Below, in pieces: positions 2,213-21,300 of a stretch of 64,000 bases of DNA (position 1 is the first letter of the stretch; every line of letters begins with the position of its first letter). A model generated the notes under the pieces. It made no database searches. It was not told where the DNA came from and saw only the letters and a program-made list of their open reading frames with translations. The DNA comes from an uncultured Elusimicrobia bacterium (GTDB lineage: Bacteria; Elusimicrobiota; Elusimicrobia; FEN-1173), in contig CAYZXT010000006.1 in NCBI GenBank assembly GCA_964482515.1, positions 28,521 through 92,520 of the forward strand, written 5' to 3'. A program made the translations under genes and the position numbers.

Positions 2213-2228
2213 GGAACGCTCCTTTGGA

Positions 2229-3114: not shown

Positions 3115-3167
3115 CAGGACGAAGGCCCCGATGGACAGCCAGAGGACGTTCGTCTGGACGAATTTTT

Positions 3168-4529
<1,362 letters not shown>

Positions 4530-4561
4530 GGAAATTTCTCCTTAAGGTTATCTTGTTGTCA

Positions 4562-4613
4562 CCCCGGCGGAAGCCGGGGTCCAGATGAACTGGATTCCGG
4601 CTTGCGCCGGAAT
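4562..4613 (-). terminator. tandem GC-rich stem-loops in the pgm-eno spacer (possible terminator/attenuator or RNA-stabilising hairpins)
   Basis: CCCCGGC-GGAA-GCCGGGG (4562-4580) and ATTCCGGC-TTGC-GCCGGAAT (4594-4613) are perfect inverted repeats. No U-tract follows either of them. Confidence 0.3.
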
Positions 4614-4627
4614 GACTGCTTAAAAAT

Positions 4628-6082: not shown

Positions 6083-6136
6083 GGGGCGCAAGTCTCCTCG
6101 GAGCCTCGAGGGACTCCGCAACAGGTTTGAGCCGCT

Positions 6137-6165
6137 ATCCTATCACAAGGTCAAAAAGCTGTCAA
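6137..6165 (-). promoter_or_regulatory. sigma70-like promoter upstream of the PGM/PMM gene
   Basis: On the minus strand, TTGACA (6165-6160), a 17-nt spacer, then TAGGAT (6142-6137). Confidence 0.4.
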
Positions 6166-6284
6166 CGGCGGTCTGAGAGGGAAAAACGATGTGAAATCCT
6201 GACCTTAACAGTCATTTTTTGGGCGAATGGAGGACAGAAACTCGGCCGGATGGTAGGATTGATTTTTTGCCGGATGCAAACAGC

Positions 6285-9200
6285 TTAAGCGGAGGTCAAG
6301 AAAAGGCCAAGAGCCTTCAGTCCTTCTTGCAGGCTCTCAACCAGGCGGAAAATCGGCACCAGGACCACAACGTCCTTGTAGACGCCCAATTCGACCTGGT
6401 CCGAAGCGAAAATCACCGCATTTTTGGGATCCAATTGCCCCGCCTTTTCCAAGGCCGACAACAGCCTGTCCATCCTCAAGATCGCTCCGTCCAGAAGCGA
6501 CACTTCCGCGCGGGCCGAAGCAATGAGCGAGGGTCTCTCGCCGGCCAGGATGATCCGGATGTTGCCTTGGCGCAACAGGACGTCGTAGTCGCGCATGAAT
6601 TCCTCCCGGTCCCTGCCCGCATTGAAGGCTGCGTCCGCCGACATGCCTTGCCAGAAATCCGGAGAGGCTTGGCGCGGATCGCGCACGATCAGGGTCAAGG
6701 TGTTCGCCGTATCCCCGGCCGTTCCCGCATTATTGGCGACGAAGGCCGCCAGCAGTCCCGACACGGAGGCGCGCGCCGCGCCCTTCTTCATCACATCCGC
6801 CGGAACTTCAGCGAAGACGTCTTTGCCGCCCCTCATCCGCGCGGAAACTTTCGTGAAGACGACGCGTCCGGCGTATGCGGCCAGAATGTCACTCCGGAAG
6901 GTTTCATGGCCCCGCGGCGACCAAGCATCGCCCGGCGCGTTGTCGCCCAAAGACTCCAAAGCCCGCCCCAGGACATAAGCGGCCCCCCGGTCCCCGCCCC
7001 TTGCCGATTCCCGCGCCAAACCCTTGGTCAAGGCCCCGCGCAGAGCCGCCGGGTCGGGCGTTCCGTCCACAAAAGCGTTGCTGGCCAGTCTGATGTGAAT
7101 CCGCGGCAGGCCCAGGGCGTCCACCCCGAAATTCCGCGCCGGAGCGATGCCGCGCAGCCAGACGCGGGCCCGGTCGCGGAACCCCGACTCCTTCACATGC
7201 CAAGAATCATCGACGGCCACAGGGACCGGAACAACGGAAACCTCCGAAACCGAATCTTGCCGGGCGGATAGGATCGCGCGGAACGCCGCGGACAGAAGAG
7301 CGGAGAAGACCATCGCCAGAACAATCCCGCCGGCCACGCCGCCCGCAAGAGACCCCGCAAGGAAACCCAAAGATACCGGCAGGACCTGCGCCGCGAAATA
7401 GGCCCACCGCTCGCTCACCACGCCCAAGCCGTGCAGCGCCTCGTGCCCGGGCACGCCCAGGATATAAAGGCCGGCGCGGGACAACACCTTGAAAACGGGG
7501 TTTGAATGATAGACGAAATGGGCGAGGGAAGGATTCAGGACTAGCGCGTGTGTGTTCTTTTCAAATTCCAATAAATCGACGCCGGGCTCAACGCGGACCG
7601 AGCGGAACCCGAACAGGGGCGGCGCGCGACCGTCGGGGGTTTCATAGGCCGCTCCCGAACGCGCAGCCGCCGCCAAAACCAATCGGAGAATCCCCATCAG
7701 GACCAGCCCCGCCAGGGGCCAAGCCGCCGCCGCGCCCAGAGAGCTGGCCGCAAAACCGAAGGACGCGGCCAAAAACTGGGCGGACACCAGGAACGCCGCG
7801 GCCGCCACGCCGAACAACGCCGCCGCCCACAGCCCCTGCCGCCAGGTTTCCCGGGACACGGCCCTGCGCTCGATGTCCTCAAACAGCCTGTCATAAGCAT
7901 CCGACTCTCCTTCCGCTTCGAACCAATCGCGAACTTTTTTCAACGCGGCGGAACGATCCACCAGCGTTTCCAAAAGCCTATTCAGCAATTCGCTCCTTGG
8001 TCCATGGGCCGTCGGTTCCGATTGAGCGTCCCTCTCGCGCGATGAATACGCCTTCGCGGCGTCCTCATAACCCATTATGTCCGAAACTTTCCCATCATCG
8101 CCCACGAAGTACACTTGCACATACTCCGGAACCCGACATTTCAAAATAAAGTCCAACATGGCCTTTTTGGGAAACGCAGCATTCACTTTAATCGTGCACG
8201 GGACCGTGATCCCCGTGGTCAACTCGTTTAGGACGCGATGGATTATCAACCATTCCGATAGACCTTCTAAATTTATACTAATTACGGATGAATTATCCTC
8301 GACCCGCGTTTCCTCCTTCGACAACGATCTCATAAGGCCGCGAAGAGTTCCCATCATCTCCTCTGTAGGATTGGTTGGTTCACCAAATTTTCCGGACAAC
8401 GCCCAGGCATGGTCGTATTGCTTGGACCCGCTATCAACTATCAAGTCCTTTGGATTCGGATGGTGGAGGAACAAATTGACGATCATCGCCTCGGGAAATT
8501 GGCCGTCAGAGACAAAGACTTTATGCAGGGCCCGCAACCCAAAAAGAGGAGACAAATCCTTCACCCGGCTGGCCTCCAAGTGAAGTATCCCCAGACTGGG
8601 CAAGGACCCCATGCCTTCGAGGGGTTCCTGTCTTTGTCCCACATTGACCAGCAACCCGAATACATTTTTTTCCACCGTGGCTGAAGGGCCAAACAGGTCC
8701 CTCGCCCGCGTTACTTGGCTTTCGAGAGTGGGGAAGCGATCCTCAGCGGCCGGGGCCGGCGTCGCAATGGGCCCCATATCGGCGAACTCTTCCGGGTGCG
8801 CGCGGCGATAAGCGACAGCCTCGGGATAGGCTATTGTTCTGAACGATTTAAAAAATCCGATCTTGACGGCCTCGGGTCGAGGGGAACTTAAAATGATCCT
8901 CGACAGCACGGCTTCGGAAAATTGCCCTTCTTCGATAACTATTTTTAAATTCCTTACGTTAAGGTATTGAACCATTTTCAGCATGTCGGAACCCTTTATG
9001 CTCGCTCCGACAAAAAAAGTAAATTCCCCGAAGGATGACGGGTGAATGCTGCTCTCATTGGCGGCTGCGGGCCCGACTATTGCTTTCAGGTCATTCGACA
9101 ATTCCGCCGCAATCACAGAATCATTGTATGACGGAAAGATATGATCCATGCGATACGTCTTCTTACCTTTTCCCGATCTGGAAATTTCAGCAATAAAAGC

Positions 9201-12200
9201 CTTCGGCGCAGGACTATAATCCTGATAAAAACTCCTGATATCCTTTTTACGAAATTTCCCCTCTGGAATACTCATGGTTTTCAGCCCTCGTAATCCACTG
9301 AAAACCCTCAAGTCGGAAGGGCCATCCTCCTTAATAATGATCGATTCGATGCTCGGGCACTTCCTCCAAAGGACGTCCCAGGAAACCGCATAGTCCCGGT
9401 CAAGCATTAACTCCAGGGGACCATCATCACGCAAATGAACTTGATTTTCGCCGAAGGTGTCAACGAGAATCCGCCGCTGCTCCTCGATCGTGGGGAAGGG
9501 GTCCGGCGTATCTGCAGGCTGGACAGTCCGCTGCGCGGCGGGCGGCGTTGTCCCGGGCAACGCCATGAGGGAGAACTGCTTTGGGTGCGCGCGGTAATAC
9601 GCGACAGCCTCGGAATAACTCATTGAACGAGACTCCCCCTCATCGGATGAAAAGATAAAATGAACGTTCTCGGGCACGGGGGAAGTTAAAATAAAAAAGG
9701 TCATGAAAAATTCGTCGATTTGAAATCCTTCAGACATCAGAAAGACTTCTCTCATTTCAGAAAAGCCCGTCAGTACCCTCAATTCATCGACGCCCAGCCC
9801 TTGAGAAAGGCGAATGCGTAATTGCCACATATCCTGCATAAACTCCGCTGTCACAGAACTCATCATGTTGTGTCGCCCGAGTTTTTCCCTGATTATCGCC
9901 CTGACTTCCTTGAAGCCGGACCCTGGAATGAAGTCCGCCGCCGAAAACCATTTCATGCCTCCAGACGGATTGTCTGAATAAATACGGATCCTTCCAGAGT
10001 TTTCAGCTTCGCGATAAAACCTTTCAAGTTCCACTCGATGAAACCTCCCGGCTGGAAGCTGGATATTGCGCAGACCCCTTATCCCTTCATAAAAGTTAAT
10101 ACTGAGGGTGCCGTTTTCCCCGACAATTATCGTCCTAATGCTCGGGCAATGCTTCCAAAGGGATTCACACTCCCTATAAGGAAATAAATCTCTATCATCC
10201 ACAGTTAACTCCAAATCCCCGTTCCTATCCACCTTCACTTTTTCGGGCCCGAAGATATCAATGAGCGCTTCACGCTGCTCCTCGATCGCGGGGAAGGGGT
10301 CCGGCGTATCAGCAGGCTGGACAGTCCGCTGCGCGGCGGGCGGCGTTGCCCCGGGCAACGTGACGGTGAACTCCTCCGGGTGCGCGCGGCAATAGGCGAC
10401 AGCCTTGGAATAATCCATAAAACGGGGGGTCTCCCCTTGCATTATAATCTCCTGAATCTCCTCAATCGAGACGCCCTCGGGAAAAGGAGCGCTCAGAACG
10501 ATTCGGGCCATGTCGGCATCCGTAAATTGATCATGATCCACAAATATCAGGATACTCGCTCGACGAGAGTATTCCGTCATTTTCATTAAGTCGGGAACCG
10601 TCGCAACCTTCGTAGGTTTAATCTCATACTTACGAGATACCCCCAGACGAACATAAATATCACGCGTCAAGTGGGGCGGGACGAATTCTCGGCACGCCTC
10701 TTCCATCTCGGATATTAAATTTTCGTTGCTCAATCCAGGGGTGAAGGTGCTCGCCGAATAACTTTGTCTTACTATTTCTTCATCCCACACATGAACGACA
10801 ATTCGCATGGGATCATTTTCATTCCCAAAAAAAAGGCCGACGTCGTCATCAGAAAATTTTCCCGGTGGAATAAAAATGGTTCTCAGCCCTCTTAATCCAT
10901 TGAAAATCCTCAAGTCGGAAGGGCCATCCTCCCTGATAATGATCGATTCGATGCTCGGGCACTTCTTCCAAAGGGCGTCCCAAGAAACCTCGTAGTCCCG
11001 GTCAAGCGTTAGCCCCAGGTTACCGTGGAGAAGCAAACGAACTTGATTTTCGCCGAAGGTCTCAACAAGAATCCGCCGCTGCTCCTCGATCGTGGGGAAG
11101 TGACCGGAGGCATCCAATACATTATCGGGATAAACAGAATCAACCGGCGCCTCCTTCAAAACGGGCGCCCGTTCCCTGTCGCGGCGGGCGACGGCGTAAA
11201 TGTAAGCCGCTTCCACGCGGGACTGCAGTTCCCGCGCGCTCATGATGATGTAAGGCGCTTCTTTCAGATAGGCGGCCGCCTGGGGCTCGTCCAATGTCCC
11301 GGAAACAACAACCACCTCGAACCCCCTGTCCTTGAGGAAATGGACGAACTCGCCGGCGATGAGATTGCCCCCGTTGGCCGGCAGGCCGTGAACGAGCAAC
11401 GGCGGCCGGGTCGAAGCGGTGGGCATGCCACCGCGGCGGAACCCCCGCAAGGGATTGCGCAGGAACTTGGGGAGATAGAGCGTTCCGGTCCCGGGCGGGC
11501 CGAACTCCCGGCCCGGAGTCGCACGCCGCTGCACGAAAGCGGAAGCTTCCGCGTCAAGGAGGGATGAAACCGTCGTGCTTAATTCCTTCATTTTTGAATA
11601 TCGGGACTCCTCACTCAGAACGCTGGGGACAGGACGCGCCGATACGGATTCAGAGATCTGGACATCGTTATTGTCGTCGCGAGCCTTCGATTCATGAGCT
11701 CCCTCAATTCCATCGTATCGGGAGCCGACCGTTTCCGAGGCAACCCGACCAAACAATCCCGCCAGCCGACCCATTTGCGATATCCGGATCCGCCCAAGGA
11801 ACCCCAAAAATCGGGTCAACCGAGAATCTTCGGTTGAGACCCCTTCTGCCCTGGCCGCCGACAACTTGATCCCGCCATAAACCATGGACGCCAATAAACT
11901 GAGTCCGACAATAATAACCAGCGGAAGATAATTCGGCATTCCACGCAACAGCTCGGGTTCAGGAATTCTGGGAATCATTGCCGGAAGCGCCGAAGATCCC
12001 GAATTCGCGTGAACAACAAGAAGAGCCAGGATTCCCGAAGCCAAAAGGACCCCCGCGGCCAATGCCAGCCGCCTCATCCGAAATCGCGACCCGGCCGGCG
12101 CTTTATTCGATTTCAATTTAGCTTGCGCGATGGCCAATATCTTCGCTTTCCTCGCCGTCAAATCCTTGTCTCCGAGAAATCCCAGGGCCGTCAGAATCGA

Positions 12201-15200
12201 CCGGGGCGCCTTATTGTCGGTGAGCTGCGCGATTATTTCCCGAAGGCGCTCTTCGGAGGCCAGGGGCAAGTCATCTTCCATCAAACCGAGCTCATCGCTC
12301 AAACTCTTTAATATTTCGTTGCGCTGATCCTGCAAATCCTCAACGACGTCCTCCAGCGGCTCCTCTGGAACCGCCCGTTCCTCCATCTCGCGCGGCGGGC
12401 CGGACAGGTCCACCTCCCCGATACGACCAAGGACTTTCCCAACGTCAACACTCCCCGGCCGTGGCAAAACCGATTTTTCCTTGGGAGAACGAACCGGGAC
12501 GGCACCAAGGCTTAGGAACTCACCGTCCAATTTGATCCTCTGCATGGCTTTCAGGGCAAGGTATTGCCGGTAAAGAATTTCATCCTCCTCCAGGGTCTCC
12601 GGGATACCGTTTTGAAAAATCTCATCCACAACGTCCAAATGCCGCAGGGCCAAGGCAAACGGGTTGAGGTTTACTTCCCCATACCGCTCCAACCAAGCCG
12701 ACGCGGCCGCTTCCAATTGCGTTCGCGATATTTCCTTCCTTCCGTAGGCGATCAGGGCCAGTTGGAATATTTTCTTCGGCGCCAGGGAAAACAGCCCCTT
12801 CCAGTCACCGGCAATCCCCCTCTCCAAGTCGCGCTGAAAATAGACCGACTCATGGTCATTGTCTTGCGTTATGCTTCCGGGGAAATGTTGCCGCATTGCC
12901 CTTTTGTGACGCAGATCCTCCAAATCTTGATACACATCCTCAAAGGGGTCCGCCGGGGCCTGCAACCCCGCGAGCGAAAGAAAAAAATCCGGCGCCGAAG
13001 TGGGGGTAAGCCCCGCGAAATCCCGAGTGAATAACCCATGTCCGGCTTCATGCTCCAGGGTGTTCAACCAATCTTGGCCATCGAACTGGTCCTCCCTAAA
13101 AGCGATGTCCACCTTCTGCGCTTTGTAGGTCCCAGCTGCGGACTGCCCCGCGGGCTTGAGGCTGATTGTCACCGGCCGTTGGTGGACAGGAAGGATGAAT
13201 TGGGCGATGCGGCCGATGGCCTTCACTTTGTCCAGGCCGCTTCTGAACTCCAGGGAAGCAAGCGCCTTCCGGCCGGGCAATTCTTGCCCCCTCAGCATCC
13301 TCCGCAGATAGATGGGGCCGTACACCCTCTCCACGGCCTCTTCCGCCGAAACGCCCGACGCCGCCACGAGCAGGGCCCGCTTGAATTCCCGCGGCGTGGG
13401 CCGCTCCCGAGACCGCGGCAGGGCGTTCTGTATCCAAAGGTGCGCGCGGACGATGTAAGCCATGTCCTCGTCCGACAGGGCCGGGGCCTTCGTCCCGAAT
13501 TCCGTGACGATGTCCAAAGCGTATTCCGATAAGTCATCCTTGTCGTAATCCATCTCGCGGCGGAAGATCACCCGGTTCTGCAAGGCCGTGGAAAGCCTTT
13601 CGCGGCCGCTGAAGTCGGCCCCGTTGATCGTGGCGATGAACGCAAAACCCTTCGCGTCGGTGTTATCGTCGGTCAGCACGTCGTTCAGCTTCCCTTCCAA
13701 ATAGCCGCTGGGCAATACATCCAACTCGCTGACCACTAGAACGACCCCGTTCTCCTTGGCCCAAACTATGGCCTTCTCAAGCTCGTCGAACCGCGGCGAG
13801 GCGTTGATGTGGCAAAAGCTGCGCGGGCCCGGCGCGGCCGCCCCCGCCTTGACCGCCTCATAACCGCTCGACTCCAGAACCCGCACCACGGTCACGTCCT
13901 TGCCGCGGCCGGAGGCTCCCTCCAAAATCATTCCCCGCTTTCCCGCCGCAAGCCCGTTCCGTTTCATACGATATTCCCGCATGATGAGGAAATCTCCCAC
14001 CGCCGCGGCCAACCTCATCGTGGTGCGCGATAGGGTAAGGGCCCTCGACCTATACAATTGGGCCCCCTCGTTGCGCAGATCCTCTATCCAGGCGTTTTGG
14101 AGAGCCTCCGCGTCCACCGCGAATTTCAGGCGGAGCGCGTGCCGGAGCGCGACGCGGCCCTCCGGACTCAAGCTCGGCGAGAACATTTCCCACGCCGCAA
14201 GGAGCGCTTCTTCCACGATATTGCCGGATCCGCTCAGCACCTGCGCCCGGGCGGACAGTTCCTGGAGGTCGCGCAAAGAAATTCCCTGTCCCTCCTCCCA
14301 CCCCGCCACCCGGCGAACGGTCTCAAATACCCCGAGCAGCAGGGCCCGCAAGGCCGCCGCGTTCGGCGCATCCGGCGACACGTATTCTTCGAGCCTTTGC
14401 CGGAAAAACGCCTCGTCGAATTCAGGGAAGGCGACGGTGGGGACGTGCGGGGCGAGGAAATCCTGATACTTTCTGTCCTGCAGGGTTTCCTGGTTCCCGG
14501 TGAAAACGACCTTCTTGCCCTCCATATCGATCTTGCGCCCTTCGATCCACATGTAGGGGGTTTCCCCTTCTCCCACGAACAGCCCCCCGAAGAACCGCCA
14601 AAAATCCGGCCGCGCCAGGTTCGCTTCGTCCAGGACCAGCAGCGCCGGCCCATCGTGCAAAGCCCAGCGCGTGATGTCGGCGAACGCGGAGGCCCTGCCG
14701 GTCTCATCGTCGTTCGAGTCCTGTTCCTGGGCGTCCACCCCGATCGTCACGGGCCCGAACATCCGCAGCCCCAGCGCGTCCGCCAAACCTTTTGCCGCAA
14801 AGCTTTTTCCCGTCCCGGGAGACCCTTTCAGGAACACCGCCGGGGATTTTGCCAATATTCTCCGCACCCGCCCCAAACGTTTATCCCAACTTTCCTCGAC
14901 CGGGCCGGCCTTGTCGTTGATGGAAGGAGCTTGATCAACGGACGCGTTCGCCTTTCGGAAAAGGGCGCGGTAGAAACCCTCCCGGTCATCGCCCAGGTGC
15001 GCCGCGATCAGCGCGTCCTGAATCAGCTCGAGCGCCCTCCCGGCGCCCGCGCGATCAAAACTTTCGGGCACGCCGGCTTCGTCCAACAAATCCAGGCTGA
15101 GGGTATCCGCGAATTCCCAAAAACGGTCCTTCCATGTGGCGGGAGCGACGATCTTGTTCATCGCCGCTTTCAGTTTCGGCCCATGAATGCTCCTCCCAGT

Positions 15201-18200
15201 CAGCCCCGCCTCCTTCGGCCGAAATGTCCGCCGCGCCGCCGTCCGCAGAAACGCGGCCACGTTCGGATCGTCCGCGTAATCGTCAAGATAAACGTCCTCA
15301 AAGGCCCGCATCCAATCCAGCGTGCCATCGGGGTTTCGAGCCTGGCGGCACAGGAGCCGGAGGCGTCCCAGGCTGAAATCCGCCCGAGCCGGATAGAGCC
15401 CGCGCCGCGCCGGCGGAGGGACCGTCTCGAAAGCCCTTCTCAAGGAGAGCACCTTCTCAATATCGCTTTCCGTGAGAGCTCCACTGAATTCGCGCTTCAA
15501 TTCCTCCACTATGTCCCGCACGGAAATGTCCAACACGGCGCGGTGAAGAACCGAGACGCCGGCGCCGCTCCCGATATGAGAAAGAAGGATCAAGCGTCCC
15601 GTTAAAACGTTTTCCCCTTTGCCGGCGAAGGGACGGACCTCGCCGTTCACCACGAGATAGGGATTTTCATGCAAAGCCGTTTCCAACTGGCGCAGGAGAT
15701 CCGGATTGGATTCCATCCCCGCCAAAACGACGGTTTCTCCCCGTTCCAAGGCCTCCAACACCTGCCTCTTGACCGCCCGCAAACGCCCCCCCGGCAACAG
15801 CTCGCTCGCCATCGATAGATCGTCCAGGATGGTCGCCGGCGTGACCGGATAAACAAGGGGGGGCTGGCCGTTCCGTTCGGAGACGTCCCGCATGATCCGC
15901 GCCAACAGGCCGGACGGGTCCGATCCTTCAACGAGCGACACCCGCCGGTCCCGCGCCATTTCCCACGACTCCGGATCCGGGGCCCTGGTCCGGCGGACCG
16001 CCGGCAGCATTCCACGATAACGCAACGGGACCTCCACGCCGACGCCCAATTCAATTTCCAATTCGCCGCCCATATGCAAAAGACGGTGCCACAGCGACTC
16101 CGGAATTTCCGGATCGGTTATAAGGACCCGGAGACGCCCTCCGTCCGCGCCCATCCGCTCCAGCAATCCCGCGCCCTGGGACAACGTCCCCTGGGAATCG
16201 ATGCGGGTGAACTCAAACAGCTGGTGCTGCGTTTCCCGGTTCAAGACCCACGCGCGCTCCGCCGGCCAGGCGGTCTCGCCCGCCGGCACGACCCGTTTAT
16301 TCTCCAAGGCGCGCCGCCCGTAGCCGCCCTCCGCCCAATGGACGGAAAAACCTTCCCGCGCCGCCACCCATTTTCCGTTGGAAAGGATCCCGCCGTTCAA
16401 GAGGGCCTGCCGGACCATGTGGGACAACCGGGTGTTGGGGATTCCCTGCTCATCTCGCCACACGCCCCCTTGGATCAAGAGGGGCCGCCCTTCCCTCATG
16501 GCCCGGACGAGTGCGCCCTCTTCCCAGCGCACGCTTCCGTTGGGCAGAAGCCGGTAGCGCGCGACCAGCGCATCCTTAATATCGATGTCGTCGGACTCGA
16601 AAAGTTCCGCGCGCAGGCCGTTGAAAGCCTCCGGATCGTCGACCTGGGACAAACCTTCCAGCGGATCCGCGTAATCCGCGTCCGCTTGGAATTCCCCGGT
16701 CAGGGAGCGTGAATAAAAATCAACCGAAAATTCACGCAGCTGGTCCTCCCGCACCGCCCCAACGATGCGGAGCGACGGAGAGGCCTTAACGCCCAAATAC
16801 TCCGGAGAGTCCCCGAACAGCTGATTGAATCCCGCCACGGTCTTTGGGTCGGAATTCGTGTAGTCCAGGAACAACACGCCGCCCCGCTCGATCAATTGAA
16901 GCAAGGGGCTTTTCGCCTCCCCAAACCGGCCGTTTATCACGCGCGCGGGATTGAGCAAATCATCCAAATCGGTGTCATCCCGCAGGGTCAGCCGCAAATA
17001 CGGAATGTTTCCGTTCGCGGCCACGATTTCCCTTAGCCGCACATCCAATGCCTCCACATCCCGGGGCGTATTCACGAAGGTCAACCCGCGACCTTCGTTC
17101 AATAGATCGGTCAGGCTCGGATCGGCCCACGGCGAACCCATCGTCATCGGGAAACGGCGGAATATTTTGTTCCACCCCGTGTGGACGGCAACGGCCAGAA
17201 CAAAGCCGATCACCATGGCCAGGAGGGAGTAAAGCGGTCCATCGAACCCGGACAGGAACAACCGGGGCGCGGCGAGGGCGGCGAGGTTGAATAAGACAAC
17301 GGCGAAAAGGCGGACGGCGAAATCAACGGGGGATTTATTTTCATGGCGGAAAACGAAAGACGCCTGGTGCGCGGCGTAATAAACCGCCGCCACCAGCCAG
17401 AACGACATGACTATCGCCAAAAGCAGCGGATTCGCCTCCAGCAACACAGCCTTCAAATTCCATGCCGCCATCAGGATGAGGCCAGGCGCGCGGCCCATCC
17501 AAAAGGCGCGCCAGCGCGTCAACGTCGGCTGCCCCCGCGCTTCGATTTCCTTCCGCGCCGAAGCGGCGGGAGCCAGGCCCGCTTCTTCAATCACGGAATA
17601 GCCAAGCAGCTTGTGACTGATCATAGGATTCCTCAGCCACTCCGGCGCATGCTTGACCGCATTTTCGTAATAGGCCTTCGTGCTCGACAGGATCAGCGAG
17701 CGGCTTCCCCACAGGTTTTTCCACCAAGGAACGCTCAACCTCCGCGGCGGACTGAACCTCACCGACTGAAAGGAATCAGCGCCTCCCACGGGGAATTCGG
17801 CGACCACCGACGGCGCGCCCGGTCGCGCAATCAACAAGCCGTTCTCTCCGAACCCGATACTCCACCCCCACCACGCCTTGGCTTTCTCAATCAGCGCGCG
17901 AAGATTTTTACGCCTTTCACCTGAGGGAAGTTTGTTTTCCCTCCACCGCGCCTGGCTGCCCTCAACAGTGGCGGCCAAGGCGTTCGCCTTCACGGCGAAA
18001 TCATGGGCCTGGATCCTTCGCTGGAAGGGTTCGGCCAACCGCCGAATCAGCCCCGGCGAGGTAAACCGTGCGAAGATCAGGGAGATGGGTTCTCCGGCGA
18101 AAATTTTCTCGATGGGGAGTGGATCGCGGGAGAAGATGTCCATGTAATTTTTGGCCTGATCGATGTTTTCCACCTTTGGCGTGACGACGACGTAAGACGC

Positions 18201-19853
18201 ATTCTTCCGCCGCCAAAGCGCCGTCATACCCTCGGTGTGGAACCCGCCGGTCACCAGGACGGCGGAGGTTTGCTTTTCTTCTTTCATTTTCCTGAGCAGG
18301 TTTTCGGTGAGGGCTTCATTGCGGGCCAAAGCCAGACGGCAGAAATCTTCGAACGGTTTCAGCAATTCCGCGCGTATGGCGGGAAAAGCCGGAGAGCCCG
18401 ACGACAGAGAGCGGGCCCGGTCCGCCATGTTGAGGATCAACGGGCGTCGTTCCGTATAATCGGCCCAATGCCGCGGCGTCATTTCCGTGCGGAGCAATTT
18501 CGTCAGCAGGGCCTGGTCGCGTCCCAACCCCGCCAGTTCCTTTTGCGCCGGCTCAAAAGTGAGCCCGGCTTCGACTGTTTTTTCCATCCGTTCCAACTCG
18601 TCCAACAACTTGTCCCGGTTTATGCGCTCCGCGGACTGGACGTAGGTCATATAATCGGACAACTGCGGATAGCCGGTCAGGTCGATGTTCTTTTCCCGGC
18701 AAAGATCGCGCATATACGCGTAATATTCCCCGTAGCTCCTTTGACCGGCGCGGTACTCGACGCTCGCCCGCACCAGTTCATCCAGGGACTCCCGGCTCAG
18801 TCGCGATACCAGGCGATCGATCAAATCAAGCCGCTCGCGTTCCACCTTTTTGAAATCCAGTTTTTTCTCCCACCGGATCGCCCGGGACAACAGGGCCACG
18901 TTGGGATAGGCCCCGGCATCCGCGCGGGAGGAAAGAAAATCCACGTAAGCGCCCAGCCCTGTTTTACCCGCCTGGAAAGTTTGATAGAAGCGGTCGAACT
19001 CCTTGAGCCCGGGCGAATAAATTTTTTCTTTCAGACCGCTCACGGCCTCGGCCAGACCCGAGAGGAACTCCTCCGCTTCCCTCCGGCGGTCCTGGGCCGA
19101 GAGCACCGCGCGGGTGTTGTCGGCGTAAAGGTCGCCCGTCTCCACGCCCCAGAGGAGCGGCGCGACCTCCGACACCAACCCCAAATATTCCGCACCGCCC
19201 ACGTATCCTTCCTCCAGGAAATAGTCCGCGAGCTGTTGGTTCATTTCTTTCCCGGCCTCGGGCAGGGCCTTGTATTTTTCCATCTCGAAGTAGCCCTCGG
19301 CGCCCTCCAACCCCACGAGCTTCACCCCGCGCCCATCCTTCAGTCCCTGCAGGATGCGGGCGATGTTCTTTTGCGCGTCGTAGGCGCCATGGATGTCTTG
19401 AATGTGGATGATGAGGGGCGAATCCGATTTAGCCAAATGGATTTCCCGGACGCTTCCATAGGGCAAGACCAATCGGGAAAGCCAAGCGGGAACAATCCCG
19501 TTCTTGGCCCACTTCACGTTTTCAGAGAGGTCATGGGCGGACAAGGGAGCCAGAGATGGGGCGAGGGTGGATCCGTTCAGGGTTTCGGGAAGTCCCAGCG
19601 GGATTTGGCCGGTGGGAAGCTGGGCGAGGAGTTGATAGTCCCGGGATGAAAGACTGTTCGCGCGGCCCGGGTTATTTTGCGCCGAAGAGCGGGATACGGA
19701 TCTTCGTTCCTCCCAAAAGTTCGCCTCGGCCAAGGGCGATGCGACCGTTGAATAAAATAACAAGGCGCAGAGGGCGGCGGCGAGGCTCTTTTTGCTCGGT
19801 CCTTGCGCGCTGAAAGGCCTGAAAATCGAGCGGGTTCGGCGGATTATATCCAT
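6285..19853 (-). CDS. giant multidomain membrane protein (4522 aa). It combines a signal peptide, a TIKI/TraB-like N-module, transmembrane clusters, AAA+ ATPase modules, HExxH motifs, an alpha/beta-hydrolase motif, 4 LRR-like tandem repeats and a C-terminal transmembrane region
   Basis: A single uninterrupted 13,569-nt ORF, open even through the low-GC stretch (8100-11100) where stops would be frequent by chance. It shows coding-like amino-acid composition throughout. The ATG at 19853 follows an AT-rich spacer. The N-terminus has a hydrophobic signal-like segment (LAAALCALLFYSTVASPLAEA). Confidence 0.85.
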   Translation of the reverse strand: MDIIRRTRSIFRPFSAQGPSKKSLAAALCALLFYSTVASPLAEANFWEERRSVSRSSAQNNPGRANSLSSRDYQLLAQLPTGQIPLGLPETLNGSTLAPSLAPLSAHDLSENVKWAKNGIVPAWLSRLVLPYGSVREIHLAKSDSPLIIHIQDIHGAYDAQKNIARILQGLKDGRGVKLVGLEGAEGYFEMEKYKALPEAGKEMNQQLADYFLEEGYVGGAEYLGLVSEVAPLLWGVETGDLYADNTRAVLSAQDRRREAEEFLSGLAEAVSGLKEKIYSPGLKEFDRFYQTFQAGKTGLGAYVDFLSSRADAGAYPNVALLSRAIRWEKKLDFKKVERERLDLIDRLVSRLSRESLDELVRASVEYRAGQRSYGEYYAYMRDLCREKNIDLTGYPQLSDYMTYVQSAERINRDKLLDELERMEKTVEAGLTFEPAQKELAGLGRDQALLTKLLRTEMTPRHWADYTERRPLILNMADRARSLSSGSPAFPAIRAELLKPFEDFCRLALARNEALTENLLRKMKEEKQTSAVLVTGGFHTEGMTALWRRKNASYVVVTPKVENIDQAKNYMDIFSRDPLPIEKIFAGEPISLIFARFTSPGLIRRLAEPFQRRIQAHDFAVKANALAATVEGSQARWRENKLPSGERRKNLRALIEKAKAWWGWSIGFGENGLLIARPGAPSVVAEFPVGGADSFQSVRFSPPRRLSVPWWKNLWGSRSLILSSTKAYYENAVKHAPEWLRNPMISHKLLGYSVIEEAGLAPAASARKEIEARGQPTLTRWRAFWMGRAPGLILMAAWNLKAVLLEANPLLLAIVMSFWLVAAVYYAAHQASFVFRHENKSPVDFAVRLFAVVLFNLAALAAPRLFLSGFDGPLYSLLAMVIGFVLAVAVHTGWNKIFRRFPMTMGSPWADPSLTDLLNEGRGLTFVNTPRDVEALDVRLREIVAANGNIPYLRLTLRDDTDLDDLLNPARVINGRFGEAKSPLLQLIERGGVLFLDYTNSDPKTVAGFNQLFGDSPEYLGVKASPSLRIVGAVREDQLREFSVDFYSRSLTGEFQADADYADPLEGLSQVDDPEAFNGLRAELFESDDIDIKDALVARYRLLPNGSVRWEEGALVRAMREGRPLLIQGGVWRDEQGIPNTRLSHMVRQALLNGGILSNGKWVAAREGFSVHWAEGGYGRRALENKRVVPAGETAWPAERAWVLNRETQHQLFEFTRIDSQGTLSQGAGLLERMGADGGRLRVLITDPEIPESLWHRLLHMGGELEIELGVGVEVPLRYRGMLPAVRRTRAPDPESWEMARDRRVSLVEGSDPSGLLARIMRDVSERNGQPPLVYPVTPATILDDLSMASELLPGGRLRAVKRQVLEALERGETVVLAGMESNPDLLRQLETALHENPYLVVNGEVRPFAGKGENVLTGRLILLSHIGSGAGVSVLHRAVLDISVRDIVEELKREFSGALTESDIEKVLSLRRAFETVPPPARRGLYPARADFSLGRLRLLCRQARNPDGTLDWMRAFEDVYLDDYADDPNVAAFLRTAARRTFRPKEAGLTGRSIHGPKLKAAMNKIVAPATWKDRFWEFADTLSLDLLDEAGVPESFDRAGAGRALELIQDALIAAHLGDDREGFYRALFRKANASVDQAPSINDKAGPVEESWDKRLGRVRRILAKSPAVFLKGSPGTGKSFAAKGLADALGLRMFGPVTIGVDAQEQDSNDDETGRASAFADITRWALHDGPALLVLDEANLARPDFWRFFGGLFVGEGETPYMWIEGRKIDMEGKKVVFTGNQETLQDRKYQDFLAPHVPTVAFPEFDEAFFRQRLEEYVSPDAPNAAALRALLLGVFETVRRVAGWEEGQGISLRDLQELSARAQVLSGSGNIVEEALLAAWEMFSPSLSPEGRVALRHALRLKFAVDAEALQNAWIEDLRNEGAQLYRSRALTLSRTTMRLAAAVGDFLIMREYRMKRNGLAAGKRGMILEGASGRGKDVTVVRVLESSGYEAVKAGAAAPGPRSFCHINASPRFDELEKAIVWAKENGVVLVVSELDVLPSGYLEGKLNDVLTDDNTDAKGFAFIATINGADFSGRERLSTALQNRVIFRREMDYDKDDLSEYALDIVTEFGTKAPALSDEDMAYIVRAHLWIQNALPRSRERPTPREFKRALLVAASGVSAEEAVERVYGPIYLRRMLRGQELPGRKALASLEFRSGLDKVKAIGRIAQFILPVHQRPVTISLKPAGQSAAGTYKAQKVDIAFREDQFDGQDWLNTLEHEAGHGLFTRDFAGLTPTSAPDFFLSLAGLQAPADPFEDVYQDLEDLRHKRAMRQHFPGSITQDNDHESVYFQRDLERGIAGDWKGLFSLAPKKIFQLALIAYGRKEISRTQLEAAASAWLERYGEVNLNPFALALRHLDVVDEIFQNGIPETLEEDEILYRQYLALKAMQRIKLDGEFLSLGAVPVRSPKEKSVLPRPGSVDVGKVLGRIGEVDLSGPPREMEERAVPEEPLEDVVEDLQDQRNEILKSLSDELGLMEDDLPLASEERLREIIAQLTDNKAPRSILTALGFLGDKDLTARKAKILAIAQAKLKSNKAPAGSRFRMRRLALAAGVLLASGILALLVVHANSGSSALPAMIPRIPEPELLRGMPNYLPLVIIVGLSLLASMVYGGIKLSAARAEGVSTEDSRLTRFLGFLGRIRISQMGRLAGLFGRVASETVGSRYDGIEGAHESKARDDNNDVQISESVSARPVPSVLSEESRYSKMKELSTTVSSLLDAEASAFVQRRATPGREFGPPGTGTLYLPKFLRNPLRGFRRGGMPTASTRPPLLVHGLPANGGNLIAGEFVHFLKDRGFEVVVVSGTLDEPQAAAYLKEAPYIIMSARELQSRVEAAYIYAVARRDRERAPVLKEAPVDSVYPDNVLDASGHFPTIEEQRRILVETFGENQVRLLLHGNLGLTLDRDYEVSWDALWKKCPSIESIIIREDGPSDLRIFNGLRGLRTIFIPPGKFSDDDVGLFFGNENDPMRIVVHVWDEEIVRQSYSASTFTPGLSNENLISEMEEACREFVPPHLTRDIYVRLGVSRKYEIKPTKVATVPDLMKMTEYSRRASILIFVDHDQFTDADMARIVLSAPFPEGVSIEEIQEIIMQGETPRFMDYSKAVAYCRAHPEEFTVTLPGATPPAAQRTVQPADTPDPFPAIEEQREALIDIFGPEKVKVDRNGDLELTVDDRDLFPYRECESLWKHCPSIRTIIVGENGTLSINFYEGIRGLRNIQLPAGRFHRVELERFYREAENSGRIRIYSDNPSGGMKWFSAADFIPGSGFKEVRAIIREKLGRHNMMSSVTAEFMQDMWQLRIRLSQGLGVDELRVLTGFSEMREVFLMSEGFQIDEFFMTFFILTSPVPENVHFIFSSDEGESRSMSYSEAVAYYRAHPKQFSLMALPGTTPPAAQRTVQPADTPDPFPTIEEQRRILVDTFGENQVHLRDDGPLELMLDRDYAVSWDVLWRKCPSIESIIIKEDGPSDLRVFSGLRGLKTMSIPEGKFRKKDIRSFYQDYSPAPKAFIAEISRSGKGKKTYRMDHIFPSYNDSVIAAELSNDLKAIVGPAAANESSIHPSSFGEFTFFVGASIKGSDMLKMVQYLNVRNLKIVIEEGQFSEAVLSRIILSSPRPEAVKIGFFKSFRTIAYPEAVAYRRAHPEEFADMGPIATPAPAAEDRFPTLESQVTRARDLFGPSATVEKNVFGLLVNVGQRQEPLEGMGSLPSLGILHLEASRVKDLSPLFGLRALHKVFVSDGQFPEAMIVNLFLHHPNPKDLIVDSGSKQYDHAWALSGKFGEPTNPTEEMMGTLRGLMRSLSKEETRVEDNSSVISINLEGLSEWLIIHRVLNELTTGITVPCTIKVNAAFPKKAMLDFILKCRVPEYVQVYFVGDDGKVSDIMGYEDAAKAYSSRERDAQSEPTAHGPRSELLNRLLETLVDRSAALKKVRDWFEAEGESDAYDRLFEDIERRAVSRETWRQGLWAAALFGVAAAAFLVSAQFLAASFGFAASSLGAAAAWPLAGLVLMGILRLVLAAAARSGAAYETPDGRAPPLFGFRSVRVEPGVDLLEFEKNTHALVLNPSLAHFVYHSNPVFKVLSRAGLYILGVPGHEALHGLGVVSERWAYFAAQVLPVSLGFLAGSLAGGVAGGIVLAMVFSALLSAAFRAILSARQDSVSEVSVVPVPVAVDDSWHVKESGFRDRARVWLRGIAPARNFGVDALGLPRIHIRLASNAFVDGTPDPAALRGALTKGLARESARGGDRGAAYVLGRALESLGDNAPGDAWSPRGHETFRSDILAAYAGRVVFTKVSARMRGGKDVFAEVPADVMKKGAARASVSGLLAAFVANNAGTAGDTANTLTLIVRDPRQASPDFWQGMSADAAFNAGRDREEFMRDYDVLLRQGNIRIILAGERPSLIASARAEVSLLDGAILRMDRLLSALEKAGQLDPKNAVIFASDQVELGVYKDVVVLVPIFRLVESLQEGLKALGLFLTSA
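7250..7830 (-). other. C-terminal transmembrane helix cluster of giant protein 1, containing HExxH motif 2 (VPGHEALHGLG, about 7420-7440)
   Basis: Hydrophobic runs LWAAALFGVAAAAFLVSAQFLAASFGFAASSLGAAAAWPLAGLVLMGIL and VLPVSLGFLAGSLAGGVAGGIVLAMVFSALLSAAF. HEALH was read from the reverse complement of 7421-7460. Confidence 0.55.
8650..11860 (-). repeat. four tandem intragenic repeat units of about 800 bp (about 265 aa, LRR_5/BspA-like core) inside giant gene 1
   Basis: Protein repeats share AVAY-RAHP ... PAAQRTVQPADTPDPFP-IEEQR ... W--CPSI-SIII-EDG-SDLR-F-GLRGL--I-IP-GKF. At the DNA level there are near-identical cores, e.g. 9466-9560 vs 10256-10350 (about 95% identity over about 95 bp) and 9255-9470 vs 10865-11100 (about 85%). 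The region is markedly lower in GC than its flanks. Confidence 0.8.
11340..11430 (-). other. alpha/beta-hydrolase (lipase/esterase)-like N-terminal motif
   Basis: PPLLVHGLPANGGNLIAGEFVHFLKDRGFEVVVV resembles the start of lipase/PGAP1-like alpha/beta hydrolases (hhhhHGhxGxxxxF...L...G). Confidence 0.35.
13030..13050 (-). other. HExxH motif 1 (LEHEAGHGLF), a possible zincin-type metal-binding site
   Basis: Read directly from the reverse-complement translation of 13021-13096 (DWLNTLEHEAGHGLFTRD). Confidence 0.4.
13690..13915 (-). other. second, degenerate AAA+-like module
   Basis: MILEGASGRGKDVTVV (Walker A-like GxxGxGK), VVLVVSELDVL (Walker B-like hhhhSELD), FAFIATINGA (sensor-1-like), ALQNRV. 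Confidence 0.55.
14600..14840 (-). other. AAA+ ATPase module (dynein/MoxR/midasin AAA_5-like) with canonical Walker A and B
   Basis: Walker A FLKGSPGTGKSFAAKGL (about 14800-14835), Walker B PALLVLDEANLARPDFW (about 14610-14650), then VVFTGNQ (sensor-1-like). Confidence 0.75.
17150..17500 (-). other. transmembrane helix cluster 1 of giant protein 1
   Basis: Hydrophobic runs LILMAAWNLKAVLLEANPLLLAIVMSFWLVAAVYYAA, FAVRLFAVVLFNLAALAAP and LYSLLAMVIGFVLAVAV. Confidence 0.6.
17990..19853 (-). other. shared N-terminal module of giant protein 1 (about 620 aa), putatively TIKI/TraB/GumN-like
   Basis: Motifs LIIHIQDIHGAYDAQ, LVGLEGAEG and VLVTGGFHTEGMTAL...YVVVTPKV are collinear with giant protein 2 (LVVLVQDAHEIYSAQ, LIGLEGAAG, VIVVGGFHAPAIEKL...VVTVTPKV). 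Confidence 0.55.
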
Positions 19854-19994
19854 GCCAACAAGTATATAGGGGGTGGATAAAATCCGCCTTATTCATTAGT
19901 AACATATGTGTAAATTTTATAATGACGTTACCGTCGGAGACAGTCCCGACCGCCCTCTGGGACCGGATGAAAATGTCTCTATTTTATAGCTCGT
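19854..19994 (-). promoter_or_regulatory. AT-rich spacer upstream of the giant gene (probable promoter region)
   Basis: About 140 bp of AT-rich sequence between the glcF-like stop and the giant-gene ATG, contrasting with 62-65% GC flanks. It carries several TATAAT-like hexamers (tataaaat, ttataat). Confidence 0.35.
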
Positions 19995-21299
19995 TTATTG
20001 TTTGGTTCGCGGGGAAAGATATTCGGCCAAATGAAGGGTCTTAATTTTGGATTTAGCGCGGCGCAGGCCGAACCGGACCTGGAGCAGGCAGGAGATGCTG
20101 GAGGTGAGAACGTAGTCCGCCCCAGTCGAAAGGATGTTCTTGGTCTTGCGGTCCAGCACCGCGCGGGAAATCTCCGGGTGGACGAAACTGTAGGTCCCCC
20201 CGCCGCCGCAGCATTGCTCCGCTTCGGGCAACTCCCGGTAATCGATGTTCGCGGACCGGGCGAGGATCTGCCGCGGCGGATCGACGATCTTCTGGGCGTA
20301 GCGCGCCTTGCAGGGGTCGTGGTAGGTGACTTTGTTGTTTTGTTCAAGCGCCGGCGACCGAAGGCCTTTTTCCAAAAACCATTCGCTGAGGTCGCGCGTG
20401 CGCCGTGAAACGGTTTCCGCCCGGCGCAGCCAGTCGGGTTCGCCGTCGAACAACTGCGGATATTCTTTGATTGTCGAGGAGCAGGAGGAATCATCCACCA
20501 GGATGATCGCTTTCGGATATTTCTCCAACTCGACGATGTTCTTGCGGGCCATGGCCCGCGCCGCGTCGAGGTCGCCGTAGCTGACGCCCGGCATGCCGCA
20601 GCAAACGTTGTCGGCGCAGCCGGACTTGAAACCCGCCGAGCGTATGATCCGCGCGGTGGCCTCGCCCACCTGCGGCATGATGAAGTTCGATCCGCAGGCG
20701 ACGAACTGAATGATTTCCGCGTCCGGCGGAGGCGTTGCGTCGCCAAGCCTGTCGCGTAAGAACGTCGAAGGGACTTCCTCCGCCAGTTCTTCCGCGTCCG
20801 CGAGTTTGGGGCTGATCATCCGCAGCAAACCGGCGCGGTTCATCCAGCGGCTGACGCCCAGGCGCTTGCCGATAAACAGAATTTTCAGGAACGGCTCGAA
20901 CACCTTCGGCCGCGGCAGCAGGACGCGCAGGACGAACTTCAGGAACAGCGGCTGGCCGTGCTTCTCCGTGATCTTTTCCCGGGCCGCCACCATCAGCTTC
21001 GCCGTGGGAACCTCGGAAAAACACACCGACGTGCAGATGCCGCAGAGCAAACAGGTGGAGAAAAGCTTTTCCGCCTCGGCCGGGTCCGCGAGGCGGCCTT
21101 CCAGCACCGCGCGAAACGCCTGGTTCCGCCCGCGCGGCGACAGACCCTCGTCGCCCGTGGCCAGATAGGTCGGGCAGAACGACGTGCAGAAGCCGCAGCG
21201 GTTGCAGTGCATCGCGTCCGCGTAGTAGGCCTTGTCGGCCGGGCGGTTCAAAGCCGCCGGGCGGGAGATGAGGTCGATCTTTGACGGTTCGTCGGGCAT
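19995..21299 (-). CDS. glcF: glycolate oxidase iron-sulfur subunit GlcF-like (Fe-S)-binding protein with CCG domains
   Basis: Two 4Fe-4S ferredoxin-type Cys clusters (CNRCGFCTSFCP, CLLCGICTSVC) and two cysteine-rich CCG motifs (DPCKARY..., EQCCGGGG). Confidence 0.82.
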   Translation of the reverse strand: MPDEPSKIDLISRPAALNRPADKAYYADAMHCNRCGFCTSFCPTYLATGDEGLSPRGRNQAFRAVLEGRLADPAEAEKLFSTCLLCGICTSVCFSEVPTAKLMVAAREKITEKHGQPLFLKFVLRVLLPRPKVFEPFLKILFIGKRLGVSRWMNRAGLLRMISPKLADAEELAEEVPSTFLRDRLGDATPPPDAEIIQFVACGSNFIMPQVGEATARIIRSAGFKSGCADNVCCGMPGVSYGDLDAARAMARKNIVELEKYPKAIILVDDSSCSSTIKEYPQLFDGEPDWLRRAETVSRRTRDLSEWFLEKGLRSPALEQNNKVTYHDPCKARYAQKIVDPPRQILARSANIDYRELPEAEQCCGGGGTYSFVHPEISRAVLDRKTKNILSTGADYVLTSSISCLLQVRFGLRRAKSKIKTLHLAEYLSPRTKQ

Positions 21300-21300
21300 A

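Follow-up and report, generated by a model that had tools for sequence, protein, structure and literature searches.

In the literature searched, dynein, midasin (Rea1/Mdn1) and RNF213 (mysterin) count as machines that eukaryotes evolved from bacterial MoxR ATPases with a single module, and the six-module chain has been placed early in eukaryotic evolution, from a MoxR-like precursor (Zhang & Aravind 2012, PMC3495828). MoxR proteins themselves have one module per chain, form homohexamers and have a VWA partner (Kaur et al. 2020, PMC7159879). The subject here is a single open reading frame (ORF) within 64,000 nucleotides of DNA from an uncultured Elusimicrobia bacterium (contig CAYZXT010000006.1, positions 28,521 to 92,520), that whole stretch being referred to below as the window. 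The ORF occupies window positions 6285-19853 on the minus strand, has an ATG start and one terminal stop codon and specifies a giant protein of 4522 amino acids (aa), residue i of which begins at window base 19853-3(i-1). It is one of a conserved group of giant, membrane-associated proteins of bacteria, a family apparently not yet described, and contains five concatenated AAA_5-type modules, including one canonical and one variant ATP site; a sixth, B2, is suggested by a structural model. In the literature searched, the combination of such an array with a protease-like domain has so far been described only in eukaryotes.

The array comprises, from its N-terminal end:
16620-17111, minus strand: AAA module A (residues 915-1078), degenerate, no P-loop, with a Walker-B-like strand GGVLFLDY
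16260-16619, minus strand: AAA module B1 (residues 1079-1198), degenerate
15948-16259, minus strand: candidate sixth module B2 (residues 1199-1302), proposed from a beta-alpha-hairpin-alpha-beta-alpha-beta pattern in the model alone
15519-15947, minus strand: AAA module C (residues 1303-1445), degenerate, with a complete alpha/beta core
14922-15518, minus strand: region between C and D (residues 1446-1644), all-helical in the AlphaFold2 (AF2) secondary structure and conserved in the family alignment
13974-14921, minus strand: AAA module D and its helical lid (residues 1645-1960), canonical ATPase site
13254-13973, minus strand: AAA module E and its lid (residues 1961-2200), variant ATPase site

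Module D is the only canonical ATPase site, with the Walker A motif GSPGTGKS at 1677 (G1677-K1683-S1684), LLVLDEANL at 1738 (D1742-E1743), sensor-1 N1787 and R1794. Module E keeps the catalytic Lys and Glu, in GASGRGKD at 1979 (K1985) and VVSELD at 2040, where S-E2043 replaces D-E, and these are followed by T-x-N2077 and R2094; the other modules are degenerate, a pattern shared with dynein, midasin and RNF213. K1683, D1742/E1743, N1787, R1794, K1985 and E2043 are invariant in 38 sequences, and N2077 and R2094 never vary in a 13-sequence alignment (A1) and are kept in 90% or more of the 38. Because the ATPase residues are invariant, the array needs ATP. The family motifs are G-x-P-G-x-G-K-S, h-h-h-D-E-A-N-L and F-T-G-N (sensor 1) for module D, and, for module E, G-K-x-G-x-I-x-E-G-x-S-x-R-G-K-D, S-E-x-x-x-L and G-F-x-x-x-x-T-x-N...G-R-E-x-L-S-x-A-L-x-N-R, the last of which is the midasin-type module signature. 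Pfam AAA_5 matches the giant protein at module D with 40.5 bits (cutoff 22; E 3.4e-10) and matches 14/14 relatives tested; on the tile 900-1320 its match, at B1, is below cutoff (E 0.0011). When the modules are delimited by the secondary structure seen in the AF2 model, hhalign relates A (915-1078) to C (1303-1445) (96%, E 2.6e-9), C to D (1645-1815) (96%, E 6.8e-9), D to E (1972-2100) (92%, E 7.4e-7) and B1 (1079-1198) to C (90%, E 1.8e-6), and internal BLAST also matches A to C (residues 940-1017 with 1321-1398). A preliminary description of the window, made from its letters alone, had pointed to at least two dynein/MoxR-type AAA+ modules; both of its motif pairs are present, and the array is larger, with five demonstrable modules, not two.

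By sequence, midasin is the closest of the solved structures: when PDB sequences were searched with a profile of residues 1655-2125, it came first (E 6e-22 and 5e-20), the next match being at E 9e-5. Stretches match all six midasin AAA modules, most strongly module E with AAA3, and module D with AAA5. Both proteins are long single chains of AAA_5-type modules in which active and degenerate modules are mixed, and in both an acidic stretch follows the ATPase part. However, the giant protein is bacterial and membrane-associated, is without MIDAS/VWA and without a detectable linker of ~1700 aa, and has an HExxH domain, a Tiki-fold domain and repeats. Since the midasin matches are not collinear (E with AAA3, D with AAA5), they stop short of establishing that the array as a whole and the eukaryotic rings have one origin.

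The best fold match is instead the dynein heavy-chain motor. The AF2 model of residues 915-2114, for which 25 family sequences were aligned, is a single, confidently predicted body, with a mean predicted local distance difference test (pLDDT) of 84.7 and a predicted template-modelling score (pTM) of 0.83. The preliminary description had proposed structure prediction of individual modules, and this larger model led to dynein motor folds: in a Foldseek search of the PDB the top 50/50 matches are dynein heavy-chain motor structures (best E 5.4e-21), with alignments that mostly run the full length of the 1200 residues (1,200-1,480 columns). There are also differences from dynein. TM-scores are ~0.4, the AF2 secondary structure is without the long coiled-coil insertion (stalk/microtubule-binding domain, strut), and four modules, of 100-160 aa, are much smaller and without lids.

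Other comparisons are looser. In RNF213, two AAA modules bind or hydrolyse ATP. RNF213 offers a likeness of concept only, six AAA modules in one chain being fused to an enzymatic module that they regulate (PMC7311170); the effector of the giant protein is zincin-like, not an E3, and the two proteins are likened by description, not by sequence or fold comparison. The MoxR AAA+ proteins (RavA, NorQ, CbbQ) share the Pfam AAA_5 match, and the model has the beta-hairpin insertions typical of the clade, but in the giant protein the modules are concatenated and no VWA domain was found. FtsH also has a membrane anchor, an AAA+ ATPase and HExxH in one chain, but it is a homohexamer with a single classic-clade AAA and an M41 peptidase; against the classic-clade model PF00004 the giant protein scores 16-18 bits, below the cutoff of 21.2, and it has no Peptidase_M41 match. 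The giant protein is thus not midasin (no MIDAS, not collinear), not dynein (no stalk) and not FtsH (no M41). The remaining comparison is with the giant multi-transmembrane proteins of Omnitrophota and Elusimicrobia, which come from the same phyla and share alternating hydrophobic clusters and large domain arrays. Those proteins, encoded by >20-30 kb and with SecA-like, adhesion and carbohydrate-active domains, are the subject of West-Roberts et al. 2023 (bioRxiv 10.1101/2023.11.21.568195) and Seymour 2023 (PMC10066038). AAA_5 is among the 20 most frequent domains of the giant proteins of the former; the main texts of the two contain no dynein or midasin, and the array family is not described there. 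A literature search for the family, and for bacterial midasin- or dynein-like single-chain arrays, also found no description.

Membership of the family is wide. An exhaustive HMMER search with residues 1101-2300 yielded 825 cluster representatives (E<=1e-3), of which 376 have E<=1e-10 and 96 have E<=1e-30, the top matches being proteins of 2,000-7,700 aa aligned across all 1200 residues at 30-40% identity. When the whole protein was compared with these matches by BLAST the architecture was collinear, with residues 900-2570 represented in 30 of the closest relatives; the N-module described below is present in about half of the matches, many others being probably N-terminally truncated. The conserved order, over residues ~1-2925, is signal-like N-terminus, Tiki-fold domain, hydrophobic cluster, AAA+ array, HExxH, acidic linker, transmembrane hairpin and a domain here called X. 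Nothing past residue ~2925 is common to relatives, and what lies there (four ~266-aa repeats, then a hydrophobic C-terminal region) is lineage-specific. The protein had been thought a unique mosaic, a view that does not survive the collinearity of its first ~2925 residues in dozens of giant proteins from several phyla; its standing as an undescribed system is upheld, AAA_5 being the only part with a curated match and no paper being found that describes the family.

A scan of GTDB, one genome per species, with the 13-sequence profile A1 gave 16 loci in seven lineages, each a giant ORF: Elusimicrobiota, Omnitrophota (including Omnitrophus fodinae), Planctomycetia, Marinamargulisbacteria, Auribacterota, KSB1 and FCPU426, all from metagenome-assembled genomes (MAGs) or single-cell genomes. 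With the single giant protein as query the same scan gave no loci. Word-index protein searches (with residues 1641-2500 and with profile A1) gave no matches despite existing relatives, so that the index is insensitive here. Whole-protein phmmer against PDB sequences had no match, an NCBIfam scan found nothing relevant and a PADLOC scan had no match. The profile searches suggested in the preliminary description were run with Pfam on ten tiles (~70% of residues) and with the PDB, and only AAA_5 was above cutoff; it is the sole curated model to match the giant protein, which leaves the N-module, the HExxH domain and domain X without any. Canonical LRR arrays, irrespective of their position in the chain, are frequent in relatives, LRR_4 matching 8/14 of them (best E 3e-22).

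More distant AAA_5-array proteins, of 2,000-2,600 aa, have alternative payloads. In P0054 and P0105 the arrays are accompanied by a transglutaminase-like peptidase core, and in P0074 and P0087 by MgtE_N domains (all four are of 2,300-2,550 aa). Such compositions suggest that the joining of AAA_5 arrays with peptidase-type domains is a wider theme, reminiscent of the MoxR-VWA-transglutaminase operons that Zhang & Aravind 2012 (PMC3495828) discuss. One relative of the giant protein, P0012 (4730 aa, with weak Metallophos and LRR_4 matches), is at 1-3842 of locus L002 on a 2.17-Mb contig (JGI Ga0315338_1000003), and its gene is ~6 kb downstream of one annotated as encoding 20,982 aa.

That the 13.6-kb gene is real, and a single giant gene, is confirmed. 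A stop-free run of 4522 codons has a chance of ~1e-72 from base composition, and an identical protein (P0002) is encoded on a 116,168-bp NCBI contig. The Logan assembly of SRR14787578 is 100% identical to window 11071-23386 and that of SRR14787577 to window 17980-25536, and together these two independent assemblies exactly reproduce residues 1-2927. The early claim of one uninterrupted 13.6-kb ORF holds. The alternative, that ordinary genes were fused by a misjoin or sequencing error, or that the number of repeats is wrong, has a few points in its favour: in a related MAG the N-module is a protein of its own, of 613 aa (though its gene stops 42 nt short of a contig end), the guanine plus cytosine (GC) content of the repeats is ~10 points below that of the remainder of the ORF, and the independent SRR14787578 contig ends within a 272-nt, 84%-identical repeat copy where the repeat region starts. 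However, besides the two identical assemblies, the same collinear order recurs in dozens of relatives from other assemblies, the reading frame is open across all four repeats and a family-typical C-terminus closes the ORF, and at most the repeat copy number could be wrong. An artefact is accordingly very improbable, and fusion of genes by misassembly is rejected on the strength of the independent assemblies and collinear relatives.

Towards the N-terminus the array is preceded by:
19722-19853, minus strand: signal-peptide-like N-terminus (residues 1-44), with an R/K-rich start, hydrophobic 24-42 and an A-E-A site
19698-19721, minus strand: NFWEERRS motif (residues 45-52), directly after the predicted signal-peptidase site
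18162-19496, minus strand: N-module (residues 120-564, or ~120-565), predicted alpha/beta fold of the EreA/ChaN/TraB/Tiki superfamily split by a ~285-aa helical insertion
17169-17489, minus strand: hydrophobic cluster 1 (residues 789-895), three segments on the Hessa scale (810-828, 849-867, 874-892)

Residues 1-23 have six Arg/Lys and one Asp, and an equivalent N-terminal segment with an AxA-type site is found in every full-length relative; a signal-peptide-like segment, where the preliminary description had a signal peptide, is recognisable from this charged start, the hydrophobic stretch and the A-E-A site. The family form of the NFWEERRS motif, [NS]-[FLM]-W-x-[ED]-R-[RK], is present in P0007, P0018, P0021, P0022, P0024, P0025, P0001 and a paralog in the window. 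The N-module, which is predicted to be a hydrolase or ligand-binding domain, has in its AF2 model (pLDDT 82.9, pTM 0.77) the characteristic alpha/beta core of the EreA/ChaN/TraB/Tiki superfamily together with an all-helical insertion of ~285 residues. The fold table for it contains the erythromycin-esterase-like structures 2rad (9.8) and 2qgm (8.7), a TraB family protein (9.7), HopBA1 (9.4), ChaN (8.6), EreC (8.3) and RRSP (8.1). Foldseek gave no significant match for the module, and its profile found only noise among PDB sequences. In Pfam the only match is to PF04187 (ChaN family; 17.2 bits, cutoff 27.7, E 0.005), PF01963 and PF05139 having no match.

D153, H155, Q161, E183, R511, G536, G537 and H539 of the module are invariant in a 14-sequence alignment. 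They form a conserved set of His/Glu/Arg/His type (D-x-H...E...R...GG-x-H), putatively equivalent to the catalytic residues of EreC or Tiki in the EreA/ChaN/TraB/PrgY/Tiki superfamily. PrgY and Tiki likewise pair such a domain with transmembrane segments. The module differs from known members in its ~285-aa helical insertion, its fusion to a protein of >4000 aa and its Pfam score below cutoff. An N-module with paired GxxH-like motifs had been noticed at the outset. The fold-table entries (2rad, TraB, HopBA1, ChaN, EreC) therefore make that a good guess, and the module and its conserved QDxH and GGFH stand, with the amendment that there is a single true GxxH, GGFH at 536, the other conserved motif being Q-D-x-H at 152-155.

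The N-module also occurs with other partners. A paralogous 1913-aa ORF on the plus strand of the window (44084-49825) resembles the giant protein at its two ends only: the shared parts are a signal-like N-terminus, an SFWQDRRK motif, an EreA/ChaN/TraB-fold module (35% identity to residues 22-598) and an ...IQTLIAA C-terminus. Its middle is different, with an HxGH nucleotidyltransferase-like motif (PLHWGH, ~residue 943) and 2+2 transmembrane segments, and has no Pfam match. On a contig of an Elusimicrobia MAG (JAEURZ010000011, locus L001) a 2650-aa ORF at 543-8495 starts with the C-terminal half of an N-module, continues with an APH-type kinase domain and ends ...ALAQAA, and 10001-11842 encodes the stand-alone 613-aa N-module protein mentioned above, which has 44% identity to the N-module of the giant protein and whose gene ends 42 nt before the contig does. 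Because the L001 proteins and the window paralog carry other middles, the shared N-module and C-terminal end can be said to frame several different payloads.

On the other side of the array the conserved part continues with:
12444-13253, minus strand: predicted HExxH (zincin-like) domain (residues 2201-2470), HEAGH at 2268
12174-12428, minus strand: acidic linker (residues 2476-2560), D+E 26% overall and 32% over 2487-2545
11862-12074, minus strand: transmembrane hairpin (residues 2594-2664; segments 2596-2614 and 2642-2660), R/K-rich outer flanks on both sides
11115-11666, minus strand: domain X (residues 2730-2913), a fold without known match

The HExxH motif reported earlier is found as HEAGH at 2268 and is invariant in the family alignment: no sequence departs from H2268, E2269, H2272, D2313 or R2315, and 90% or more retain E2312. 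E2312/D2313, ~40 residues downstream of the HExxH, are candidates for a third metal ligand. On motif and conservation only, the domain is predicted to be zincin-like. Its profile had a sole lead among PDB sequences, IrrE, over the strand and the HExxH helix, at a non-significant E of 0.12. The two hairpin segments are at the same place in eight relatives (P0004, P0014, P0018, P0022, P0024, P0025, P0028, P0019) and absent from nine others. Domain X, found in >50 members by jackhmmer within the family, has the motif ..YG..G.LD..RF..GDP..AF..SGG...KE.V....N..L.E.F.FL...GF.V.VY. and no significant PDB or Pfam match; it contains no DxSxS motif. A lipase-like alpha/beta-hydrolase site, which had also been proposed, is rejected: the sole GxSxG is GWSIG at 663, and no hydrolase family appears in any tile at E<=10.

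The lineage-specific remainder consists of:
7959-11114, minus strand: four tandem ~266-aa repeats (residues 2914-3965), from internal comparison
10311-11114, 9513-10310, 8715-9512 and 7959-8714, minus strand: the individual repeats
7263-7847, minus strand: C-terminal hydrophobic cluster (residues 4003-4197), ~3 transmembrane segments, HEALH at 4137
6288-7262, minus strand: C-terminal domain (residues 4198-4522), ending ...GLFLTSA

The repeats are 22-42% identical over their full length, repeats 1 and 3 being 75% identical over the first 87 residues. Their GC content is 50-51.5%, whereas the remainder of the ORF has 56-64% and flanking genes have ~62-65%. Other low-GC stretches of the window are at 30-34 kb, 44-50 kb and 56-60 kb, the paralog included. 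The preliminary description had four leucine-rich repeat (LRR)-like repeats of about this length. Four tandem repeats there are, with the likeness to LRRs restricted to ~40 residues in each (CPSIESIIIxEDGPSDLRxFxGLRGLRTIFIPxGKF), which resemble, weakly, one to two internalin-type LRR units; LRR proteins make up 22/30 of the matches listed for the repeat profile among PDB sequences, all at E 0.17 or worse, and the giant protein has no Pfam LRR match. The repeats were not found in relatives, and a scan of JGI metagenomes for the repeat unit found none. The transmembrane-rich C-terminus with a second HExxH fares similarly: cluster and HEALH both exist, but the motif has no conserved counterpart in relatives, and an estimated ~0.1 HExxH would be expected by chance in a protein this long, for which reasons a second conserved protease site is rejected. 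By jackhmmer the C-terminal 323 aa have no relatives within the family. A [QNSA]-Ala-COOH end after an amphipathic stretch is present in nearly all close members, in the window paralog and in the L001 protein; a C-terminal Ala is found in 35/155 sequences, including most complete close relatives. Such an end could be a sorting or degradation signal.

As to what the protein does, we lean, at slightly better than even chances, towards a membrane-tethered, ATP-driven single-chain machine for protein remodelling or processing, a 'mechano-protease', and not an adhesin. The AAA array would be tethered at the cytoplasmic membrane on the side that contains ATP, and ATP binding or hydrolysis at module D, and probably at E, would drive or gate a conformational change of the largely degenerate array. 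A protein bound as substrate by the repeat/LRR region may in this way be pulled or remodelled by the array and handed on to the neighbouring metallopeptidase-like HExxH domain, to be cut or processed at the membrane, with the Tiki-fold domain adding a second hydrolase or ligand-binding site. On the Hessa scale the giant protein has 3 + 2 + 3 hydrophobic segments (residues 789-805 of cluster 1 are a weak fourth candidate), and the transmembrane clusters of the preliminary description were all found, at 789-895, 2596-2660 and 4003-4197. At -2.5 to +2.5 on that scale the segments are strong enough to stop transfer. For the giant protein alone their count would put the N-module and the extreme C-terminal domain outside, and the AAA array, HExxH domain, domain X and repeats inside, a placement of the array that would therefore fit its need for ATP. 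With this count and the invariant ATPase residues, the envelope location and adhesin-like, cell-surface apparatus envisaged at first are not supported.

Several considerations weigh against such a machine. The mechanism is read from domain content, and closure of the array into a ring has to be inferred, the pTM of 0.83 and near-full-length dynein alignments being compatible with a ring and the Foldseek TM-scores to dynein being only ~0.4. The profile similarity of B2 to the other modules is not significant in hhalign. No known peptidase family matches the HExxH domain significantly, and the domain is without a Pfam match. No VWA/MIDAS partner domain was found in the protein (whole and in the ten tiles, at E up to 10) or in eleven neighbouring window ORFs scanned with Pfam, the neighbours at homologous loci not having been scanned for VWA, and this lack of a partner is against a mechanism of MoxR type. 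Threading of FtsH type is disfavoured by there being one peptidase-like domain per array, and MoxR-clade ATPases are not known as substrate-threading enzymes. A single assembly underlies the order of the repeats and their count of four, since the independent contig ends inside a repeat copy. The topology of relatives is a further point. Seven (P0003, P0004, P0009/P0153, P0012, P0019, P0028, P0032) have no hydrophobic segment between N-module and ATPase core, the window paralog has two there and crude counts in others range from one to four; all full-length relatives carry canonical-looking signal peptides with AxA sites. Because relatives with 0 or 2 segments would have the N-module and the nucleoside triphosphate-using domains on the same side of the membrane, they conflict with an arrangement in which the N-module is out and the AAA array in.

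Three readings of the topology are ranked, with the membrane-tethered machine highest, then an exported protein and then a wholly cytoplasmic one. Were most or all of the protein exported by its signal peptide, as a secreted giant effector or surface apparatus, the hydrophobic clusters would be anchors or inserts into a target membrane and the Tiki-fold domain, HExxH domain and LRRs would act on or in another cell, which would supply the AAA array with ATP. The AxA site of every full-length relative would then be explained, as would the several relatives with no further hydrophobic segment before the core, the commonness of LRRs in relatives and the [QNSA]-A-COOH end, which nearly all members and the paralogs with unrelated payloads have and which could be a sorting signal. 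The host phyla, moreover, have giant multi-transmembrane proteins proposed for predation or attachment (West-Roberts 2023; Seymour 2023). However, with invariant ATP-site residues the array must work where ATP is present, the segments in this protein stop transfer and their count puts the array inside, the neighbouring window ORFs scanned include no secretion-system genes and no adhesin-type domain was found. The periplasm and cell exterior are known to lack ATP. Export of the array is therefore unlikely. A wholly cytoplasmic tethered enzyme, with the N-terminal segment as its anchor, the clusters as even-numbered hairpins and all domains in the cytoplasm, is the only topology that fits both ATP dependence and the relatives with 0 or 2 segments. 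In keeping with it, proteins that have the hairpin after the core always have two segments in it, and the first hydrophobic segment is succeeded by a conserved positive ERR(R/K). A cytoplasm is, moreover, where erythromycin esterases, RRSP and HopBA1 act. An ordinary signal peptide is favoured, however, by the strongly positive N-terminal flank (six Arg/Lys and one Asp in residues 1-23) with the AxA sites, and cluster 1 of this protein has three, not four, segments above the Hessa threshold; the cytoplasmic enzyme has slightly less to commend it than export.

The domain logic of nucleoside triphosphatase, LRR and peptidase also brings to mind a conflict or defence sensor resembling the nucleotide-binding LRR receptors, in which the array, the LRR sensor and the protease effector would be triggered by an invader protein. 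MoxR-clade ATPases do serve in prokaryotic conflict systems (Kaur et al. 2020, PMC7159879), and there are weak nSTAND matches at the P-loop. However, there is no PADLOC match, no VWA partner and a housekeeping neighbourhood, and the core is conserved and collinear across phyla, not patchy in islands, so that a role in defence is improbable. The membrane-tethered machine, for which the array would be inside and in contact with ATP, remains the one preferred.

The genes adjacent to the giant ORF are:
23312-25516, minus strand: comEC
21301-23319, minus strand: glcD/E-like FAD oxidase
19995-21299, minus strand: glcF-like Fe-S/CCG protein
4628-6121, minus strand: phosphoglucomutase
3168-4529, minus strand: enolase

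The minus-strand order is accordingly comEC, glcD/E-like, glcF-like, giant ORF, phosphoglucomutase, enolase, in agreement with the initial placement of the ORF downstream of comEC-glcDEF and in the same orientation. The link is positional only. At L002, the only homologous locus with identified neighbours, these are different (methyltransferase, histidine kinase, ribonucleotide reductase), and a functional operon tie to comEC-glcDEF is rejected. The remaining window genes are of chromosomal housekeeping type: ilvD, folD, squalene-synthase-like genes, mdh/ldh and coaX. Elsewhere in the window, and all on the minus strand, are an HpnC/HpnD/HpnE-like trio (two squalene/phytoene-synthase genes and an amine oxidase, 35903-39195), two adjoining sulfatase-family genes with long N-terminal extensions (50957-55643) and two adjoining PAP2 phosphatase genes (26240-28104).

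A broader proposal, which we hold tentatively and which is on balance doubtful, is that the family is the prokaryotic counterpart of the eukaryotic single-chain six-AAA+ rings of midasin, dynein and RNF213, in the form of membrane-tethered, ATP-driven mechano-proteases. If so, concatenated MoxR-type rings exist, and perhaps arose, in the Elusimicrobiota/Omnitrophota/Planctomycetota radiation, and the fusion of peptidase-type domains to a membrane-tethered array would be a new design for ATP-dependent protein processing. A bacterial family with five or six modules per chain is also a set of sequences with which to test when and where concatenation happened. For the organisms themselves, it offers a first structural foothold in one of the classes of unexplained 'giant genes' found in Omnitrophota, Elusimicrobia and relatives, in whose genomes a shared N-terminal module and C-terminal end frame several payloads.

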